A DNA stretch of 9,795 nucleotides from a virus (IMGVR_UViG_2778261533_000002:1-9795); one strand, 5' to 3'. Positions 1,398 through 9,795 are shown, counted from the first letter of the stretch. Notes: generated by a model not told the origin, from the letters alone. Translations and numbers: made by a program.

Positions 1398-1446
1398 CGC
1401 ATTCGTAATGCGAAGGTCGTAGGTTCGACTCCTATTATCGGCACCA
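1398..1446 (+). other. Attachment-site core: 3'-terminal 49 nt of a tRNA-Thr(CGU) gene (thrW-like), including the T-arm, acceptor 3' strand and CCA; not a complete tRNA
   Basis: CGCATTCGTAATGCGAAGGTCGTAGGTTCGACTCCTATTATCGGCACCA folds as anticodon stem-loop (anticodon CGT), variable loop, T-arm (TTCGACT loop) and acceptor 3' strand plus CCA. The upstream sequence does not supply an acceptor 5' strand or D-arm. Identity to E. coli thrW is recalled from memory. Confidence 0.8.
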
Positions 1447-1460
1447 TTTAAATCAATAAG

Positions 1461-2624
1461 TTACACATCATTAGTACCTTCCTTATTTTTTGACTGGGAC
1501 GAATTTGGGACCGATGGGTTCAGGATCGAGTCTATTTGCCGTGCGTGTTCGGTAAGGTGATTAGGTGCAAGGTGAGCATATCGACGAACCATTTCGATAG
1601 ACTCCCAGCCTCCCATTTCCTGTAACACTGACAACGGGACTCCGGCTTGAACCAGCCAACTTGCCCAGGTGTGTCTCAAGTCGTGAAATCTGAAATCATC
1701 AATACCAGCCCGTCTCAGCGCCGCTTTCCAGGCTGTGTTTGCGTCATACCGCATCTTCCTTACTGTTGGCGCTTTCGTTCCGTCTGGTTTGGTACAGCTT
1801 TCCTTGTACACAAATACCCAACGGTGATGATTCCCGATTTGTTTTTTCAAAACGCGACATGCAGTATCATTCAGCGCAACGCCAATTGCGCGGTTTGATT
1901 TACTCTCTTCCGGGTTTATCCATGCCACCCGGCGCTGCATGTCTATTTGTTGCCATTCAAGGTTGATGATGTTCGAGCGTCTTAAGCCTGTTGCCAGTGC
2001 AAATTCAACAACAGACTTTAATGGCTCCGGACATTCATCAATCAGCCTTTGTGCTTCATGGGGCTCCAGCCAGCGGATCCGTTTATTCTTTGGTTGAGGC
2101 ACTTTAATAATTGGTGCCTTATCCAGCATTTTCCATTCACGCTCTGCGGCTCTTAGTAGGGCCTTTATAAATGAAAGATGCGTAGCCTTCGTTGCAACGG
2201 ACGCTGGTTTTGGCGTGTATTCTGGAACAGGTTTCCCTTTTTTTCTGCATGCTTCTGCCCTGAGTCTCCAGTTTTCCTCATGACGCCGGTTCGTCATTTT
2301 CTGCATTGCTGAATAAATTTTTGATTCAGTAATGTCTCTTAGTTGCATTCCTGCGAAATGTTGAAGCCAGAATCCGATCCGGCTTTTGTCATCGTCCAGT
2401 GATTTTTTATGTGCTTTCTCTTCAAGCCACCTGACACACGCTTCCTCGAACGTTATATCAGGTATTTCACCAAGTTTGCTGACCCGCCATGCTTCAGCCT
2501 TTAGCTTGTCATGGAGTTCTGTCGCCTGCCTTTTGTCCTTTGTTCCAAGAGACTGTTTAAATCTTTTACCGTTCGGCAATGTGAAACTGGCGTACCATAT
2601 TTCACCTCTGCGGAAGAGTGACAT
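1461..2624 (-). CDS. int: Phage integrase, P22 Int-like tyrosine recombinase (387 aa)
   Basis: ATG at 2622-2624 ([14 protein letters not shown]...), stop at 1461-1463. Catalytic motifs [14 protein letters not shown] and VRRYAHL are present. Length and N-terminus match my recollection of P22 Int, which integrates at thrW. Confidence 0.9.
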
Positions 2625-2851
2625 TTTCTTTCCTCTGTTATGCCATCACCCGCGCTCACCTGGACAGTATGCAGCGGAGACTGAAGAGCCGCAATGCAGG
2701 CTTGTCGTGTTGTGAGGTAAGGAGATTTATTCTTAGTGGGATCTTTGCGTGTTGCCTGAAGACGCCCTGTGCGTATCCAGTTAATGGCAGTCGGTCTGGA
2801 TATCTTGAGAAAATGACAGGCCTCATCGAGTGTGAGGCTGTATGGCTCCAT
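2501..2851 (-). CDS. xis: Excisionase (Xis), 116 aa, helix-turn-helix
   Basis: The track ORF 2501-2935 is an upstream extension. The internal ATG at 2849-2851 ([31 protein letters not shown]...) gives a 116-aa product and overlaps the stop of the upstream gene by 1 nt (TAATG). The 3' end overlaps int by 124 nt in another frame. The position upstream of int and the HTH-like segment fit an excisionase. Confidence 0.75.
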
Positions 2852-3156
2852 TATTTCACCTCTTGCTGTGACATTGTTGAAAAATGGATACCAGCTCGTT
2901 GCTGCCAGACGATCCAACCGAGAGTCATATCCCATGCCATGTATTCGTTATCGCCGTTTTTTGCTCTCCGACGATCTACTAAGTTACCGAAACGCTTTTC
3001 CATGAATAATTCATAAGCTTCGCGTTCATCTGGTTCTACTTCCAGAGATAGGAGTGCGATTTCATAAGCACGGCGCTCAATATCGTCTCGCACGTCAAGG
3101 CTGCTGATACGCTCTTTAATTTCTTTAATCAGTTCTTTGTCGGTAAAAGTGGTCAT
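2851..3156 (-). CDS. Hypothetical phage early protein (101 aa)
   Basis: ATG at 3154-3156 overlaps the stop of the upstream gene by 1 nt (TAATG), and its own stop overlaps the xis start by 1 nt. Acidic, helical-looking sequence with no recognisable motif. Confidence 0.6.
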   Translation of the reverse strand: MTTFTDKELIKEIKERISSLDVRDDIERRAYEIALLSLEVEPDEREAYELFMEKRFGNLVDRRRAKNGDNEYMAWDMTLGWIVWQQRAGIHFSTMSQQEVK

Positions 3157-3518
3157 TATGCTCCAGCCTCCGGTGCTTTTGGCATTACTGCCCAGTGAGT
3201 GATATTGACGTTTTCAAGGTCCCCGACCTGAAATGTCCACTGCCATTCTCCGGTTTCTTTTTGTCCCCAGGTGTACCAGAGAGAACGCCAACCAATTAGC
3301 CAGCCTTCTCCGTTAGCATCGAATAACAAAACACTTTCATTTGCTGGTGGCAGTTCAGTTGACACTGGTATTACTTTGTTTTCCTGTGCTGCACATTTAG
3401 CTTCAAGCGCATCGAATTTACGCACCAGGTATTCAGCATCTGTTTCATTTACTTTCAGATCTCGCGGTACACATCTCCCACGAAGAAACCCTTCCATTTC
3501 GAAAACATTCATGCGCAT
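3156..3518 (-). CDS. DUF551-like phage protein (120 aa)
   Basis: ATG at 3516-3518 is preceded by GGAG at an appropriate distance. The C-terminal segment WQWTFQVGDLENVNITHWAVMPKAPE resembles the conserved THWMPLPEPP end of DUF551 proteins, as I recall the family. First gene of the leftward operon. Confidence 0.65.
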   Translation of the reverse strand: MRMNVFEMEGFLRGRCVPRDLKVNETDAEYLVRKFDALEAKCAAQENKVIPVSTELPPANESVLLFDANGEGWLIGWRSLWYTWGQKETGEWQWTFQVGDLENVNITHWAVMPKAPEAGA

Positions 3519-3973: not shown

Positions 3974-4057
3974 CCACAGAACGATGAGGCTAACCGCAAT
4001 GCGTCGAATGTTTATCAGCTTAACGTTGCGAAGCTTCAGGCAGCGGCATTTTCTCAA

Positions 4058-4212
4058 CTGTCAGATTCTGACCCGTCAAAATCTGACGCATCAAAATCTG
4101 ACCCGTCAAAATTTGATGCGTCGAAATCTGGCAAAAAAGCGGGTTTTCACCCGTCAGAATCTGGCGGGGATCCGTCAGTAAAATCAAAACATGATCCGTC
4201 AGATAAAAAACC
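4058..4212. repeat. Tandem 15-bp repeats, consensus cCGTCAAAATCTGAc: five contiguous units (4058-4132) plus three degenerate CCGTCAG-initiated copies (4151, 4172, 4196)
   Basis: Direct reading: ctgtcagattctgac / ccgtcaaaatctgac / gcatcaaaatctgac / ccgtcaaaatttgat / gcgtcgaaatctggc. The period is a multiple of 3 and sits in an open frame, where it encodes DPSKS/DASKS-type pentapeptides. Confidence 0.8.
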
Positions 4213-4330
4213 TTCTCGTCCGGACGCTTCGCAACCGGACACGCAGACGGCTGAACAGGATTTTTTAACTCGCCATCCTGATGCGGTTGTATTCAGCCCT
4301 AAAAAGCGCCAGTGGGGGACGCAGGATGAT

Positions 4331-4699
4331 TTGACCTGCGCACAGTGGCTCTGGAAAAAAATCATCGCCCTGTACGAGCAGGCTGCCGAATGTGACGGCG
4401 AGGTGGTTCGTCCCAAAGAACCGAACTGGACAGCCTGGGCAAACGAAATTCGCCTGATGTGTGTGCAGGATGGTCGTACTCACAAACAAATCTGCGAGAT
4501 GTACAGCCGCGTCAGCCGCGATCCGTTCTGGTGCCGTAACGTGCTCAGCCCGTCGAAGCTGCGGGAAAAATGGGATGAGCTTTCTCTGCGCTTATCGCCG
4601 TCCGTCAGCACGTACACAGAAAAACGCGAAGACCCGTACTTCAAAGCCAGTTACGACAATGTGGACTACAGCCAGATCCCGGCAGGATTCAGGGGGTGA
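4331..4699 (+). CDS. DnaT-like (primosomal protein I C-terminal domain-like) phage replication-associated protein; coordinates are from the first canonical start (TTG), but the frame is open from 3974
   Basis: The C-terminus ...DNVDYSQIPAGFRG matches the characteristic C-terminal end of E. coli DnaT (...SEPDSQIPPGFRG, from memory). Stop at 4697-4699, immediately before the SD (AGGGGG) and ATG of the next gene. The same frame is stop-free for 119 codons upstream (3974-4330) with no ATG/GTG/TTG, so the 5' extent is unresolved. Confidence 0.6.
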   Translation: MTCAQWLWKKIIALYEQAAECDGEVVRPKEPNWTAWANEIRLMCVQDGRTHKQICEMYSRVSRDPFWCRNVLSPSKLREKWDELSLRLSPSVSTYTEKREDPYFKASYDNVDYSQIPAGFRG

Positions 4700-4701
4700 G
4701 C

Positions 4702-5190
4702 ATGAGTCTTTTGAATGACGTTCAGAAATTCATTGAAGCCCATCCGGGCTGTACTTCCGGAGACATTGCGGATGCTTTTGCAGGTTACTCACGGCAGCGC
4801 GTTCTGCAGTCAGCAAGCAAGTTACGTCAGAGTGGGCGTGTGGCTCACCGTTGTGAAGGAGATACACACAGACATTTCCCGCGCCTGACTGAGAGAGCGC
4901 AGGATCCGGAACCACAACCAGTTCGTGAAACCAGACCTGTGCGCAATTTCTATGTCGGCACTAACGACCCGCGGGTGATTTTGTGCCTGACCCGCCAGGC
5001 GGAAGAACTGGAGTCCAGGGGCTTATACCGTCGTGCTGCAACGGTGTGGATGGCGGCATTCCGTGAAAGCCACTCCCAGCCAGAACGAAACAATTTTCTG
5101 GCGCGTCGTGAACGGTGTTTACGGAAAAGCAGTAAGCGGGCTGCATCAGGTGAAGAGTGGTATCTCTCAGGGAATTACGTGGGGGCTTAA
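4702..5190 (+). CDS. PerC-family-like transcriptional regulator with an N-terminal winged-helix-like region (162 aa)
   Basis: ATG at 4702 sits 5 nt after AGGGGG; the track GTG at 4696 is less likely. The C-terminal motif AEELESRGLYRRAATVWMAAF resembles the LE.GLWRRAA.RW core I recall for PerC/Pch proteins. Stop at 5188-5190 overlaps the next start (TAATG). Confidence 0.6.
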   Translation: MSLLNDVQKFIEAHPGCTSGDIADAFAGYSRQRVLQSASKLRQSGRVAHRCEGDTHRHFPRLTERAQDPEPQPVRETRPVRNFYVGTNDPRVILCLTRQAEELESRGLYRRAATVWMAAFRESHSQPERNNFLARRERCLRKSSKRAASGEEWYLSGNYVGA

Positions 5191-5843
5191 TGAGTAATAA
5201 ATATTGCCAGGCGCTGGCGGAACTGCGGAACAAACCAGCCCATGAACTGAAGGAAGTGGGCGATCAGTGGCGCACGCCGGACAACATTTTCTGGGGAATT
5301 AACACTCTGTTTGGCCCGTTTGTTCTGGATCTGTTTACTGACGGTGATAACGCCAAATGTGCTGCGTATTACACGGCGGAAGACAACGCGCTGGCGCATG
5401 ACTGGTCAGAACGCCTTGCGGAGCTTAAAGGTGCTGCCTTTGGTAATCCCCCATACAGCCGCGCCAGTCAGCATGAGGGGCAATACATCACCGGCATGCG
5501 TTACATCATGAAGCATGCCAGTGCCATGCGTGATAAAGGCGGGCGCTATGTTTTCCTGATCAAAGCTGCCACCAGCGAAGTGTGGTGGCCGGAAGATGCA
5601 GATCATATTGCTTTTATTCGCGGGCGTATTGGTTTTGAACTGCCTGCCTGGTTTATCCCGAAGGATGAGAAGCAGGTGCCGACAGGCGCTTTCTTCGCTG
5701 GTGCTATTGCTGTTTTCGACAAGACCTGGAAGGGACCGGCAATCAGCTACATCGGGCGCTATGAACTTGAGGCATGTGGTGAGGCCTTTCTGGCGCAGGT
5801 TCGCCAGCAGGCAGAAAAACTGGTCAGGGAGATGGCGGCATGA
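5190..5843 (+). CDS. Phage Dam-type DNA N6-adenine methyltransferase (217 aa)
   Basis: ATG at 5190 is preceded by GGGGG and overlaps the upstream stop; the track GTG at 5157 is less likely. Motifs [10 protein letters not shown] and FGNPPYS (catalytic NPPY) fit the small phage Dam family found in T1 and lambdoid nin regions. Stop at 5841-5843 overlaps the next ATG (ATGA). Confidence 0.75.
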
Positions 5844-6154
5844 CGACGTTAACTCAATGCCAGCAGCAGGTGCTGGATATGCTGATTTCTTATCAGAAAG
5901 AACGTGGCTTCCCGCCAACCAATCAGGAGGTGGCAACCATGCTGGGATGCATGGCCCGTCTGAAAAAGAACAACAGCGATTTGCACGATTTATTAGTAGA
6001 TTATTATGTAGGTGGTATGACGTTTATGGCGCTTGCCCGTAAACATGGGCGTTCTGATTGCTGGGTTGGGCGCTTATTGCAAAAGGCAGAAGGCATCATT
6101 GAAGGTATGTTGATAATGTTAGAAATAGAATTGGAAATGGACTCAAATATCTAG
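5840..6154 (+). CDS. Q-like late antiterminator (QuuD/21-type short Q) with an atypical LexA-like N-terminus (104 aa)
   Basis: ATGA-coupled to the MTase. The C-terminal two thirds ([35 protein letters not shown]...AEGIIEGML) resemble my recollection of the DLP12 QuuD antiterminator. The N-terminal 36 aa ([33 protein letters not shown]) instead resemble the LexA N-terminal DNA-binding helix pair. The last 20 codons lie in AT-rich sequence. Confidence 0.5.
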
Positions 6155-6281
6155 AAAGATATTTTATGAGTATCTGGATTTTTAATTTGTATTGTTAGCA
6201 TGAAATTAAGGAGGGTGGACTGTTTGTGCTTTATATTAATGTTTTTGTGGGGATTTAATAACCACTGATTTATTTGAGGGT

Positions 6282-6316
6282 GGCGCTAATGTACAAGGTT
6301 TTTAGTAATTAGCGCC
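6282..6316 (+). terminator. Possible intrinsic terminator or hairpin downstream of the Q-like gene
   Basis: Perfect 9-bp inverted repeat GGCGCTAAT/ATTAGCGCC with a 17-nt loop, followed on the plus strand by a U-rich tract (tgctggtttgttattttatttt). It lies 11 nt past the stop of the convergent minus-strand gene, but that strand has no U-run after it. Confidence 0.3.
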
Positions 6317-6326
6317 TGCTGGTTTG

Positions 6327-7778
6327 TTATTTTATTTTGCTTACTATATTTGTAATAAGTGGGTCAAATTTCTCATCAATAATTTCAATATATTTTTTAA
6401 TTGCTAAAGTTCTAATTACTTCCTCCTCACATTCTGCTTCTTTAGCAATTGCTTGAGTGTAATTGTGATGATCACTAATCCCTTCCTTTTTTATTAACCA
6501 ATCAAAATCAATATGATACTCCTTGTAGAGGAATTTTTTTACTTCCTCATGTTGAAATACTTCTACTTCTGGTGGCCTATTGCCAGGGAAAGAAAATAAA
6601 TCATCTTTAATGTTTTCTCCAACATCTGCATCTCTTACGGCAATAACATTAAGGCCTGCTTTCTTGAATACCTCGACTGCTTGTCGGACTGCATCTTTAT
6701 CTCCAATATCAGTGATTTGAATGGATTTAAGAATGTCTCTCCGCTTTGCTCTAATTACTTCACTAAGTAAAACTTTTGCAAACTGGTCTTCTACGCAAAT
6801 ATGCAGCCCTTTAAACTGCCCATCAGACAGTATTGATCTCACATGAGTTGTTGAAATTCCATCTTTGATATAGACACCAGTCTGATCTCTAATAAGTAAT
6901 TTTCGTGCATCAGGAGGTAAAGCATTTAATATCACACTTGAGTGTGTTGATAATATTATTTGATGTTTTCTACGTTGACATACTTCCATTAAATATTTTG
7001 CAAATTCATACTGTGCGCTTTCATGAAGAGATGTTTCTGGTTCTTCTAGTACGAAAAGACTTTGCTCTGGAGCTGTTTCAAGCATATCAACCGTATAAAG
7101 AACTCTTCCTTCGCCAAACCCCATGTTATTTTCAGAATAAGAATACCCAAGTCTTTCAACAATACCAATTTCTGAACGACGTGCTCTATGAGAAATTCCT
7201 TGGAATGCGATATCATCATATGGATGACCTATTATTTTTGCCATCTTCAATATTACTGAATGGTCGACGCTTCTTCTCTCTGTTAAATCAAAGTCTTTAC
7301 CGCCATAAACACTTATATCTCTACGTTCTACTTTTGGAATATAGACAGTAAAACCAATGTAAAAACAGTGTCTTTCTGGTTGTCTTTTATATCCAGACCA
7401 AGAAGACTTTATGCGAGTGACAGTCACATCTTGTGTTTTCGTTGAATCATTTGTTTCATATTTATAAATGACACTGGCGTCATTATCGAAAGGGGCTGGA
7501 TCGGCTTTAGATACAGGGAAAAAATCTTTAATATATAATCTCTTATATTCACGGGCTGTAACTGGTTTTTTATATGCGCATATTGCTAACTGCCCAAGAG
7601 TGCTTTTCCCAGCGCCGTTTAGCCCTGATATTGCAGTTACCGGAAAATTTATATTTAATGTTAGTTTTTTTATTCCTCGAAATCCATTTATCTCTAGACT
7701 TTTAATTACGGAGCCAAAGTTTGAGTATCTATTTTTATCAAAGTACATGCATTTTAGTATATTTTTTATGTCTGACAT
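6327..7778 (-). CDS. ABC-type ATPase fused to a Toprim-like nuclease domain; OLD/PARIS/Gabija-like candidate anti-phage defence protein (483 aa)
   Basis: ATG at 7776-7778 has AGGAAAG upstream and an in-frame TAA two codons before it. Walker A GLNGAGKST (about aa 52-60, read directly from the DNA as GGG CTA AAC GGC GCT GGG AAA AGC ACT). Walker B plus D-loop LFVLEEPETSLH (about 241-252). H-loop ILSTHS (about 275-280). C-terminal Toprim-like signature: CVEDQFAKVLL (Glu about 330) and, about 55 aa later, AVRDADVGE (DxDxG, about 383-387). Confidence 0.7.
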   Translation of the reverse strand: MSDIKNILKCMYFDKNRYSNFGSVIKSLEINGFRGIKKLTLNINFPVTAISGLNGAGKSTLGQLAICAYKKPVTAREYKRLYIKDFFPVSKADPAPFDNDASVIYKYETNDSTKTQDVTVTRIKSSWSGYKRQPERHCFYIGFTVYIPKVERRDISVYGGKDFDLTERRSVDHSVILKMAKIIGHPYDDIAFQGISHRARRSEIGIVERLGYSYSENNMGFGEGRVLYTVDMLETAPEQSLFVLEEPETSLHESAQYEFAKYLMEVCQRRKHQIILSTHSSVILNALPPDARKLLIRDQTGVYIKDGISTTHVRSILSDGQFKGLHICVEDQFAKVLLSEVIRAKRRDILKSIQITDIGDKDAVRQAVEVFKKAGLNVIAVRDADVGENIKDDLFSFPGNRPPEVEVFQHEEVKKFLYKEYHIDFDWLIKKEGISDHHNYTQAIAKEAECEEEVIRTLAIKKYIEIIDEKFDPLITNIVSKIK

Positions 7779-8043
7779 TTTTTATCTTTCCTGATATGAA
7801 TGAGAGTTATCTTTAGAAAAACAATAAATTTATAACATTTAGAGATGTATTCATCAATGATTGGGTAAATATCGTGCATTTGTTGTTTTAAAATCAACCA
7901 AGAATGATTTTTATAATTATGTCAATTGCCTTATTATCAATATGGTAATGTTTTCTCAATCTAATTATTGGGGGGGAATATATTATTTACAATCGTAAAT
8001 AATCAGATATGCTCTCAAGAGTGGTTACTTCGCCACACAACTT

Positions 8044-8069
8044 AAACCCGCCGTCGAGCGGGTTTTTTT
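8044..8069 (+). terminator. Rho-independent terminator (plus strand)
   Basis: aaacccgc-cgtcga-gcgggttt hairpin (GC core CCCGC/GCGGG) followed directly by a T run of 7 (8063-8069). It marks the right edge of the AT-rich island. Confidence 0.65.
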
Positions 8070-8191
8070 GTACCTGTAAACCTGGTGCAGTACGGTAAAC
8101 ACGCTGGTGGTCGTGAATACTGACTTTTTATCTTGCTGGCTTTTTAGACAAGAGTTATTGGTATGTCATGTTAACCAGAAGGAAAAAAGAC

Positions 8192-8386
8192 ATGTTAAAA
8201 CAGCAAGATATGACAGAAACGGCGAAAGTTGTTTTTAATGAATTAAGCATCGAACCGGCAACAGTCGGGGAGATTGCACAAAACACATATCTTTCACGCG
8301 AACGCTGTCAGTTAATACTGACCCAGTTGGTTATGGCGGGGCTGGCAGATTACCAGTTCGGCTGTTACAGACGCCTTCAGCTATGA
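8192..8386 (+). CDS. Small winged-helix DNA-binding protein (64 aa), possibly PapI/FaeA-like
   Basis: ATG at 8192 lies 8 nt after AGAAGGA; the track ATG at 8168 lacks an SD. The segment ATVGEIAQNTYLSRERCQLILTQLVMAGLA has the spacing of an HTH recognition helix followed by a wing, comparable to PapI as I recall it. Confidence 0.55.
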   Translation: MLKQQDMTETAKVVFNELSIEPATVGEIAQNTYLSRERCQLILTQLVMAGLADYQFGCYRRLQL

Positions 8387-8535
8387 AGGACTTTTAATTT
8401 GTGAAAATGGGCGGCTGGTGGGTGTTGGTAGCACCTGCCAGCCATTCGCTCATGCTTACTGGTCACAAGCGAACCACGGCCCACTGCTTTAGCGCAAAAG
8501 CAGAGTGAGCCTACCAGAGTTACGCTTACTGATCC

Positions 8536-9588
8536 ATGAAAAATACTGTAAAAATAAACAGTGTTGATTTAATCAACGCTGATTGCCTGCATTTTATTCA
8601 GTCCCTGCCTGATGATTCCATTGACCTGATTGTTACCGATCCGCCGTACTTCAAGGTGAAACCCAACGGTTGGGACAATCAGTGGAAAGGGGACGAAGAT
8701 TACCTTAAGTGGCTGGACCACTGTCTGGCCCAGTTCTGGCGGGTGTTGAAACCTGCCGGAAGCCTTTACCTGTTCTGTGGGCATCGCCTGGCATCTGATA
8801 TTGAGATCATGATGCGTGAACGTTTCAACGTGCTTAACCATATCATCTGGGCGAAGCCGTCCGGACGTTGGAATGGGTGTAATAAAGAAAGTCTGCGCGC
8901 ATATTTTCCTGCCACAGAGCGCGTTCTGTTTGCTGAACATTACCAGGGGCCATATCGCGGCAAAAGTGACGGCTATGCGGCAAAAGAAAGGGAACTCAAA
9001 CAGCACATAATGGCACCGCTGATATCGTATTTCAGGGATGCTCGTGCCGAACTGGGTATAACGGCAAAACAAATTGCCGAAGCCACAGGTAAGAAAAATA
9101 TGGTTTCCCACTGGTTTGGTGCCAGTCAGTGGCAGTTGCCGAATGAGGCTGACTATCGGAAGTTACAGGCACTGTTTTCCCGTATAGCGGCAGAGAAGTT
9201 TCAGGAACAACAACTGGAACAACCACACCACCAGCTGGTGGCATCTTATGATTCACTGAATCGCAAATATTCTGAATTGCTGGATGAGTTTAAATCTCTC
9301 CGGCGCTATTTCTCCGTATCAGTCTCCGTGCCTTATACCGATGTCTGGATGCATAAACCCGTTCAGTTCTACCCGGGTAAACATCCGTGTGAGAAACCGG
9401 CGGATATGCTCAGGCAAATAATCAATGCCAGTAGTCGACCTGGTGATCTGGTTGCTGATTTTTTTATGGGATCCGGTTCCACAATAAAAGCAGCAATGGC
9501 GCTGGGGCGTCGGGCCTTAGGTGTTGAGCTTGAGTCAGAGCGGTTTAACCAGACAGTGAAAGAGATAAACGAGCTGGTGGGGAAATAA
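8536..9588 (+). CDS. DNA methyltransferase, beta-class N6-adenine/N4-cytosine type (motif IV before motif I), 350 aa; no cognate endonuclease in the window
   Basis: N-terminal [12 protein letters not shown] (catalytic DPPY) and C-terminal [17 protein letters not shown] (AdoMet-binding FxGxG). The central target-recognition region contains an HTH-like segment ([12 protein letters not shown]). A GATC sits immediately 5' of the ATG. Confidence 0.85.
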
Positions 9589-9594
9589 TCTGGT

Positions 9595-9620
9595 GGCCAC
9601 GTCAGGTGGCCTTTTTATTT
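9595..9620 (+). terminator. Rho-independent terminator after the MTase, in the position of a late-region tR'-like terminator upstream of the holin start
   Basis: ggccac-gtcag-gtggcc hairpin (9595-9611) followed by TTTTTATTT (9612-9620), 7 nt after the MTase stop and 36 nt before the holin-like ATG. Confidence 0.65.
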
Positions 9621-9655
9621 CCATTACACAGCACCCGCATCTGCGAGGTGGGGTT

Positions 9656-9784
9656 ATGAAATCCATGGATAAGTTAACAACGGGTGTCGCCTATGGCACC
9701 TCAGCAGGTAGTGCCGGGTACTGGTTTTTACAGTTTGAACCGTCCCGGGAATCCTGGAGACTAAACTCCCTGAGAAAGAGGTAA
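9656..9784 (+). pseudogene. N-terminal remnant of an S21/EssD-type pinholin (dual-start MKSM motif and first transmembrane/SAR segment only)
   Basis: ATG at 9656 is preceded by [33 protein letters not shown] matches the first 26 residues of phage 21 S as I recall them. The frame then diverges ([16 protein letters not shown]) and stops at 9782-9784, and no frame in the remaining window encodes a second TMD. A new RBS-ATG (AAAGAGG, ATG at 9789) follows. Confidence 0.45.
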
Positions 9785-9795
9785 ACAGGATGACT

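Follow-up and report, generated by a model that had tools for sequence, protein, structure and literature searches.

The stretch of DNA considered here, called the window below, is the whole of the 9,795-bp contig NMHY01000063.1 from the Escherichia coli draft assembly GCA_002512315.1, and the element that it carries is a decayed prophage. A phage gene for a Dam-type N6-adenine methyltransferase (5190–5843, plus strand; PF05869, E 5e-45, with a gene call and a gene order shared with two related prophages, L002 and L003) is followed on the same strand by an ORF of 104 aa, which runs from an ATG at 5840 to a TAG at 6152–6154 and was defined by ORF and gene calling, Pfam and a protein search. The ATG of this fusion ORF overlaps the TGA stop of the methylase gene (ATGA) and has the sequence AGGGAG 8–9 nt 5' of it, and the same overlap of Dam stop and next start is found in the parent phage, which has an intact LexA-family gene at that place. 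The exact fusion protein is present in the NCBI database as WP_097412898.1, under the name 'antiterminator Q family protein'.

The first-pass annotation had read the 36 N-terminal residues of this ORF as LexA-like and the C-terminal two thirds as resembling a short Q antiterminator of the 21/DLP12 type, and profile searches of the two halves agree with it on both counts, placing them in two different families with Pfam as well as with PHROGs. In Pfam, residues 1–36 match LexA_DNA_bind at profile positions 1–36 of 65 (E 5.3e-7; 29.8 bits, above the cut-off of 23.7 bits), the profile being PF01726, so that the boundary falls exactly where the first-pass annotation had drawn it, and residues 34–99 match Phage_antitermQ (PF06530) at positions 53–118 of 118 (E 1.7e-17). 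The PHROGs profiles split the protein in the same manner, into positions 1–39 of 106 of phrog_362, a 'transcriptional repressor', and positions 72–150 of 156 of phrog_79, labeled 'anti-termination protein Q-like'. In NCBIfam, residues 1–38 align with positions 1–38 of 203 of the LexA model TIGR00498 at a sub-threshold 22.9 bits (cut-off 110.95), and Pfam also returns weak HTH_23 and HTH_58 matches at residues 46–89; a PADLOC scan gave no match for the fusion protein. The two-part composition of the ORF is far beyond chance. In a search of 5.8 billion proteins, the fusion was the only one of the 120 best matches to contain both Pfam domains, so that the full-length match to one established family, which would have spoken against a chimera, was not found.

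The parents of the two halves can be named, and the proposal that the ORF is an in-frame chimera made by recombination is confirmed at the level of single bases. When window positions 5700–6330 were compared with 5,426 complete E. coli genomes, there were thousands of matches to either half, and the LexA-family/Q junction was found in 0 of the 5,426; a single record spans both halves, but with 538 extra bases between them. Positions 5700–5948 are 100% identical to Dam and LexA-family genes in many E. coli genomes, where they are annotated 'phage N-6-adenine-methyltransferase | LexA family transcriptional regulator', and positions 5940–6330 have 99.5% identity to a segment annotated 'antiterminator Q family protein | ATP-dependent nuclease' in complete E. 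coli genomes. The prophage of strain ATCC 43886 (L002), an apparently intact relative, was taken as the reference for the size of the deletion. Window positions 3987–5948 align with positions 1433–3394 of this prophage and end at codon 36 of its LexA-family gene, and window positions 5940–9735 align with positions 6001–9793 and begin at codon 56 of its Q gene; the 3' part of Q with its flank (window 5948–6340) is 100% identical to ATCC 43886, with no mismatch. Base-by-base comparison together with the alignment places the deletion junction at 5948 on the plus strand: the left parent is identical to the window up to T5948 and the right parent from T5948 on, which amounts to a perfect microhomology of 1 nt. 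The window has GGGAT|GC where the left parent has GGGATAC and the right parent GGGTGC, or, with more context, ...CTGGGATGCATGG where the left parent has ...CTGGGAT|ACCG and the right parent ...GCGGGT|GCATGG. The left parent segment (5840–5948, plus strand; placed by identity and alignments) comprises codons 1–36 of a 108-aa phage LexA-family gene (phrog_362), and the right parent segment (5949–6154, plus strand; 100% identical to the ATCC 43886 Q gene) comprises codons 56–123 and the stop of a 123-aa Q gene of the QuuD/H-19B type. In the protein alignment, the fusion likewise consists of LexA-family residues 1–36 followed by Q residues 56–123.

Relative to ATCC 43886, 2,613 bp are absent, which is exactly 871 codons, and the join is in frame because this length is a multiple of three. 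The missing sequence comprised the rest of the 108-aa LexA-family gene, rusA, a KilA-N gene, a DUF968 gene and codons 1–55 of Q. Both flanks are 99–100% identical to the parent genes, and the deletion must be recent because neither flank has a single substitution relative to the parent alleles. In ATCC 43886 the relative is integrated at thrW, adjoining the tRNA-Thr gene downstream of proA, and its gene order, as taken from the RefSeq annotation, is int, an xis-like gene, yfdR/Q/P, repressor, a cro-like gene, ymfL, a DUF4222 gene and an HTH gene at the left, followed by PerC, Dam, the 108-aa LexA-family gene, RusA, KilA-N, DUF968 and the 123-aa Q, and after Q by the ATP-dependent nuclease on the minus strand, a small ORF, a DNA methyltransferase, essD, rrrD, lysis genes and terminase.

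What the fusion retains of its left parent is the beginning of a DNA-binding domain. The 108-aa parent protein aligns with LexA residues 2–70 (E 6e-16) and matches phrog_362 over positions 1–106, whereas the fusion keeps the equivalent of LexA residues 1–36, about the first half of the roughly 70-residue DNA-binding domain, and does not contain the complete winged-helix domain (about LexA residues 1–70). Neither the fusion nor its 108-aa parent has an S24 peptidase domain in Pfam or NCBIfam. Relative to the phage LexA-family proteins (108 aa; WP_000210170.1 and WP_032200250.1), the fusion has the same residues 1–36, the same start, ribosome-binding site and Dam overlap, but lacks 72 of the 108 residues, including the part aligned with LexA 37–70. 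Recognition helix 3 and the wing belong to the second half of the LexA DNA-binding domain. The fusion is therefore without the LexA recognition helix because its LexA part stops at residue 36, and LexA-type DNA binding should be lost.

The right parent contributes a longer segment. In the intact Q protein WP_001504953.1 (123 aa), residues 56–123 are identical to fusion residues 37–104, and an alignment with six relatives shows the N-terminal 55 Q residues replaced in the fusion, so that a full-length PF06530 match, including the WGAW and RPxCxDDD motifs, is reduced to the C-terminal half of the profile. The comparison with QuuD and Q21 that the first-pass annotation had suggested gives the same result, with Q homology in the C-terminal part only. 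The fusion is 58% identical to QuuD of DLP12 in a protein alignment, and the first 55 Q residues, which carry the WGAW and RPQCCDDD motifs, are replaced in it by 36 residues from an unrelated gene; the Q of VT1-Sakai is 77% identical to the intact parent Q. It had also been suggested that the last 20 codons run into AT-rich island sequence. These codons are indeed AT-rich (GC 0.32, against 0.45–0.51 upstream), but they are not read-through into an island: the tail is identical to that of the intact Q allele, reaches the last position of the PF06530 profile (118 of 118) and can be aligned with the C-termini of other Q proteins, and the quuD tail of DLP12 has a GC content of 0.33. The last 20 codons are native Q sequence.

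A comparator of known structure is Q21 of phage 21 (PDB 6P18, 6P19 and 6JNX), of which the parent Q is a sequence homologue. In Q21, the linker between H1 and H2, H2 itself and the linker between H2 and H3 form a torus that lies inside the RNA-exit channel, with the nascent RNA threading through it and the narrowest point at Ser29 and Thr54, while H3 contacts the RNA polymerase dock, and DNA is bound through a helix-turn-(loop)-helix that resembles sigma region 4 (bioRxiv 10.1101/651190). Intact Q residues 8–90 align with Q21 residues 20–103 (PDB 6P18/6JNX, E 2.7e-8); the parent Q falls short of the length of Q21 by about 40 residues, and the last 33 residues of the parent are unaligned to Q21. 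Within the alignment of Q residues 8–90, the breakpoint at Cys56 of Q corresponds to Val69 of Q21, and the fusion keeps the part from about Q21 residue 69 on. The counterparts of Ser29 and Thr54, which are Asn17 and Ser41 of the parent Q, are both deleted, so that the torus segment has no equivalent in the fusion, which lacks the whole torus-forming segment because the breakpoint lies at the Val69 equivalent. AlphaFold2 modeling yielded a pLDDT of 57 for a near-identical full-length Q (P0003, from an alignment of 80 sequences) and of 55 for the fusion alone, and our structural statements rest on the alignment to Q21 because these models are of low confidence; the low-confidence full-length model (pLDDT 57) predicts a helix at residues 47–63, with the breakpoint inside it. 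As a torus segment like that of Q21 would enter the RNA-exit channel and block the formation of terminator hairpins, and the fusion is without that segment, it has probably lost antitermination, which accords with the earlier suggestion that the product may be inactive as an antiterminator. The C-terminal body that would correspond to the sigma-region-4-like helix-turn-helix is kept in sequence, as residues 37–104 equal parent residues 56–123 and give the weak HTH matches, though the models of it are of low confidence; with the entire predicted helix-turn-helix present, the retained Q body might still bind DNA to some extent.

The fusion ORF occupies the position expected of a Q gene, that of QuuD and the Q genes of H-19B and VT1-Sakai, upstream of a homologous segment with the cognate pR', Q-binding element and terminator, and of the essD holin and lysis genes. 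The first-pass annotation had suggested a search of 6155–6330 for a pR'-like promoter and a Q-utilisation site, but the promoter and terminator scan found no promoter-like site in that interval. The probable late promoter pR' lies further downstream, at 7986–8013 on the plus strand (TTTACA, a 16-nt spacer and TATGCT), and is supported by the promoter scan and by homology to DLP12 and VT1-Sakai. It is followed at 8044–8071 on the same strand by a GC-rich, terminator-like hairpin with a T run, supported by the scan and by homology to the first of the putative pR' terminators of VT1-Sakai. Over its 82 bp, the late-control segment has 86.6% identity to the sequence that precedes essD in DLP12 and 80% identity to the sequence that immediately follows Q in Stx phages of the H-19B/VT1-Sakai type and in Ss-VASD, where the Stx-phage annotations read 'putative late promoter', 'putative Q-utilization' and 'putative rho-independent terminator for pR' transcript'. 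By eye, an AATC repeat spaced by 10 bp can be seen in the spacer of pR', and this repeat may be bound by Q. In L003, a prophage whose Q allele differs, the sequence in common with the window sets in only at 8017, about the expected start of transcription, which would fit an exchange of Q together with its binding site. In the Stx phages of strain Sakai, the pR' transcript has its measured 3' end at a second terminator, 258 nt downstream of where it starts, and processing of the terminated transcript in Stx phages yields StxS, a small RNA that binds Hfq (PMC7547250). In view of that 3' end, the hairpin at 8044–8071 is a putative terminator that may be of high or low efficiency.

A minus-strand gene of 1.45 kb separates the fusion ORF from pR', as it does in the intact parent phage. 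It encodes an 'ATP-dependent nuclease' of 483 aa (6327–7778) with an OLD-family ATPase/TOPRIM organization and is inserted cargo by its Pfam, PADLOC and RefSeq assignments; Pfam matches it to AAA_15 and AAA_21 and weakly to an OLD-like TOPRIM domain, PADLOC matches it to HEC-04 (E 5e-47), and it is a candidate defence gene. The same slot between Q and pR' is occupied elsewhere by other minus-strand genes, the nmpC porin in DLP12 and two hypothetical genes in L003. Between the fusion stop and the point where the convergent nuclease gene ends, an inverted repeat was seen by eye at 6282–6316 (GGCGCTAAT ... ATTAGCGCC; 9-bp stem, 17-nt loop) and is followed by a T-rich run; its long loop kept the automatic scan from flagging it. 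The repeat may serve as a terminator of the fusion ORF, of the nuclease gene or of both.

Decay of the prophage extends well beyond the fusion. Compared with the intact relative, the window has also lost a region that begins with yfdR, includes the immunity genes (repressor and cro) and takes in, at its other end, the 5' part of the HTH gene that precedes PerC; short yfdQ and yfdP fragments are all that is left of it. At the right, the essD-type holin gene persists as its 5' part (9656–9735, plus strand; Phage_holin_2_1 on a gene call at 9656–9784, with the alignment to the ATCC 43886 prophage stopping at 9735) and is interrupted near codon 27 by one end of an IS3-family element of the IS1203/IS629 kind, which continues to the contig end at 9795, bases from about 9724 to 9795 matching IS3-family element ends. 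At the left, bases 1–60 are an IS1 end, so that both ends of the contig are IS sequence. Two tyrosine integrase genes lie in tandem (236–1339 and 1398–2624); from 1398 on, the sequence matches the 3' part of tRNA-Thr (thrW) and the thrW prophage integrase, and bases 1–1400 are 100% identical to a segment of other genomes with 'site-specific integrase / tRNA-Ser / IS1'. The left part of the window suggests two islands side by side. Rfam at its gathering thresholds and ARAGORN returned nothing in the window.

Similar truncations of Q occur in other degraded lambdoid prophages of E. coli, where upstream sequence is likewise joined to a 3' fragment of Q, with a left partner other than the LexA-family gene: rusA'-'Q in strain 300490, NinE-Q (P0115), YlcG-Q (P0009), SieB-Q (P0101) and IS629-type insertions (P0011, P0062 and P0113), several of them with nearly the same breakpoint. 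One spot in Q, GGGTGC|ATGGCC (codons 56/57; nucleotides 165–169 of the QuuD/H-19B-type gene), recurs as the right-hand breakpoint: at least five rearrangements that arose independently and differ in their left partner have their ends no more than 4 nt from it. The left partner is the LexA-family gene in the window (5944–5951), rusA in strain 300490 (GGTTA|CATGG; L001, 6785–6792), ninE in another locus (CCGCCA|TGG; L006, about 4112–4120), 70 nt with no match in complete genomes in a fourth (L007, about 72–80), and early-left genes in 22 complete E. coli genomes including APEC O78 (L050, about 5362–5370). The window junction was considered as a product of the 300490 junction by a second deletion, and this derivation was rejected because the window keeps the G of Q at 5949, where strain 300490 has A. 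Two further candidates for the site were rejected, a metagenome contig of low coverage with a frameshifted Q (P0070) and a lineage (P0011/L008) in which an IS629/IS1203-type insertion, rather than a deletion junction, lies 6 nt upstream of the spot. The same type of IS end is joined to Q at codons 45, 50 and 55 (L008, 1–83; P0011, P0062 and P0113), and the IS629/IS1203 family appears to have inserted repeatedly and independently into the same 30 bp of the Q gene. The remaining breakpoints in Q are scattered, 116 of the 119 IMG/VR loci in which the right flank is present have an intact Q, and the recurrent spot has no stable DNA hairpin (z 0.12 relative to shuffled sequences). We consider it unlikely that codons 56/57 are a non-random site of rearrangement, whether through a site-specific break or through selection for the C-terminal HTH domain. 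If selection were the cause, the Q HTH domain, whether translated from Met57 or as part of a fusion, would act as an anti-Q that sits on the Q-binding element, silencing late genes or excluding related phages.

Before the fusion is interpreted, its reality and its nature as a chimera have to be considered. The window is a short draft contig flanked by IS sequences, which is the kind of setting that could yield a chimeric contig, but the identical junction sequence is present in an independent assembly, GCA_958313175.1, whose contig (L004) differs by an IS5-type element inserted in the nuclease gene. The contig is moreover reported from four samples, and the junction lies in unique sequence with no repeat there. 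An assembly or sequencing artefact is excluded because the two independent assemblies carry the same junction, and we give this explanation a negligible probability. That the LexA-like N-terminus might instead be native to a sub-family of Q, with no chimera at all, is extremely improbable; no point was found in its favor, the 80 full-length relatives aligned share an N-terminus that reads MRDIQMVLERWGAW..., and the first 109 bp of the ORF have 100% DNA identity with another gene, which in intact phages is found 2.2 kb upstream of Q. The fusion is rare as well as real, with WP_097412898.1 seen on two contigs and forming a singleton cluster at 90%, and its left partner and junction are confined to one lineage.

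Two other readings would grant the fusion a function. One, which the first-pass annotation had raised as a Q variant with altered DNA recognition, is an active antiterminator to which the LexA-like N-terminus gives a new DNA specificity. Both halves do come from DNA-binding or transcription proteins, and the frame is open, but just residues 1–36 of the roughly 70-residue LexA domain are present, the equivalents of Q21 residues 1–68 are missing together with the torus positions, and the architecture is shared by no homologue among the 120 best matches. With the LexA recognition helix and the Q torus segment both absent, this proposal is not supported, and we judge it very improbable. The other is a dominant-negative 'anti-Q', in which the HTH body would bind the Q-binding element at pR' without a torus and so block late genes, of the resident element or of superinfecting phages with the same Q specificity. 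The retention of the HTH region (weak matches at 46–89, identical to intact Q 56–123), the intact start signals and Dam coupling, the pR'-like region that is still present at 7986–8071, and the exactly shared C-terminal Q portion kept by several independent rearrangements would all suit such a role. On the other hand, the breakpoint inside the helix predicted at 47–63 (in the low-confidence model) means that the body may not fold, and high-affinity binding by Q21 needs two protomers in contact (bioRxiv 10.1101/651190). The native early promoter region is also deleted, the equivalent Q fragment of strain 300490 is out of frame with the upstream gene, and the fusion is a singleton, unchanged since its formation, and so gives no sign of selection. 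A dominant-negative role therefore appears improbable.

We favor the reading that the fusion ORF is a pseudogene-like remnant, without either parental activity, of one illegitimate deletion in a decaying lambdoid prophage at thrW, and would give this a probability of about 0.88. The reading builds on an observed parentage, an exact junction, the reading frame, the rarity of the join and the residues lost with it. In the proposed sequence of events, a single deletion of 2,613 bp at 1 nt of microhomology would have brought codon 56 of Q directly behind codon 36 of the LexA-family gene, and as the latter gene's ribosome-binding site and its start coupled to Dam are kept, translation of the fusion could continue. 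The open frame could reflect chance, which would give it in 1 of 3 cases, or selection.

The fusion is an ordinary, recent and lineage-specific product of prophage decay. Its database label, 'antiterminator Q family protein', is misleading, as the protein is a LexA-family'-'Q deletion chimera without the part predicted to be needed for antitermination, and it should be counted neither as a working late-gene switch nor as a new domain architecture. The locus shows how the early-right operon of a domesticated prophage collapses while its cargo, here the candidate-defence nuclease and the methyltransferase, is kept. The clustered breakpoints in Q, if confirmed, would point to a mechanistic hot spot or to selection acting on prophage decay.
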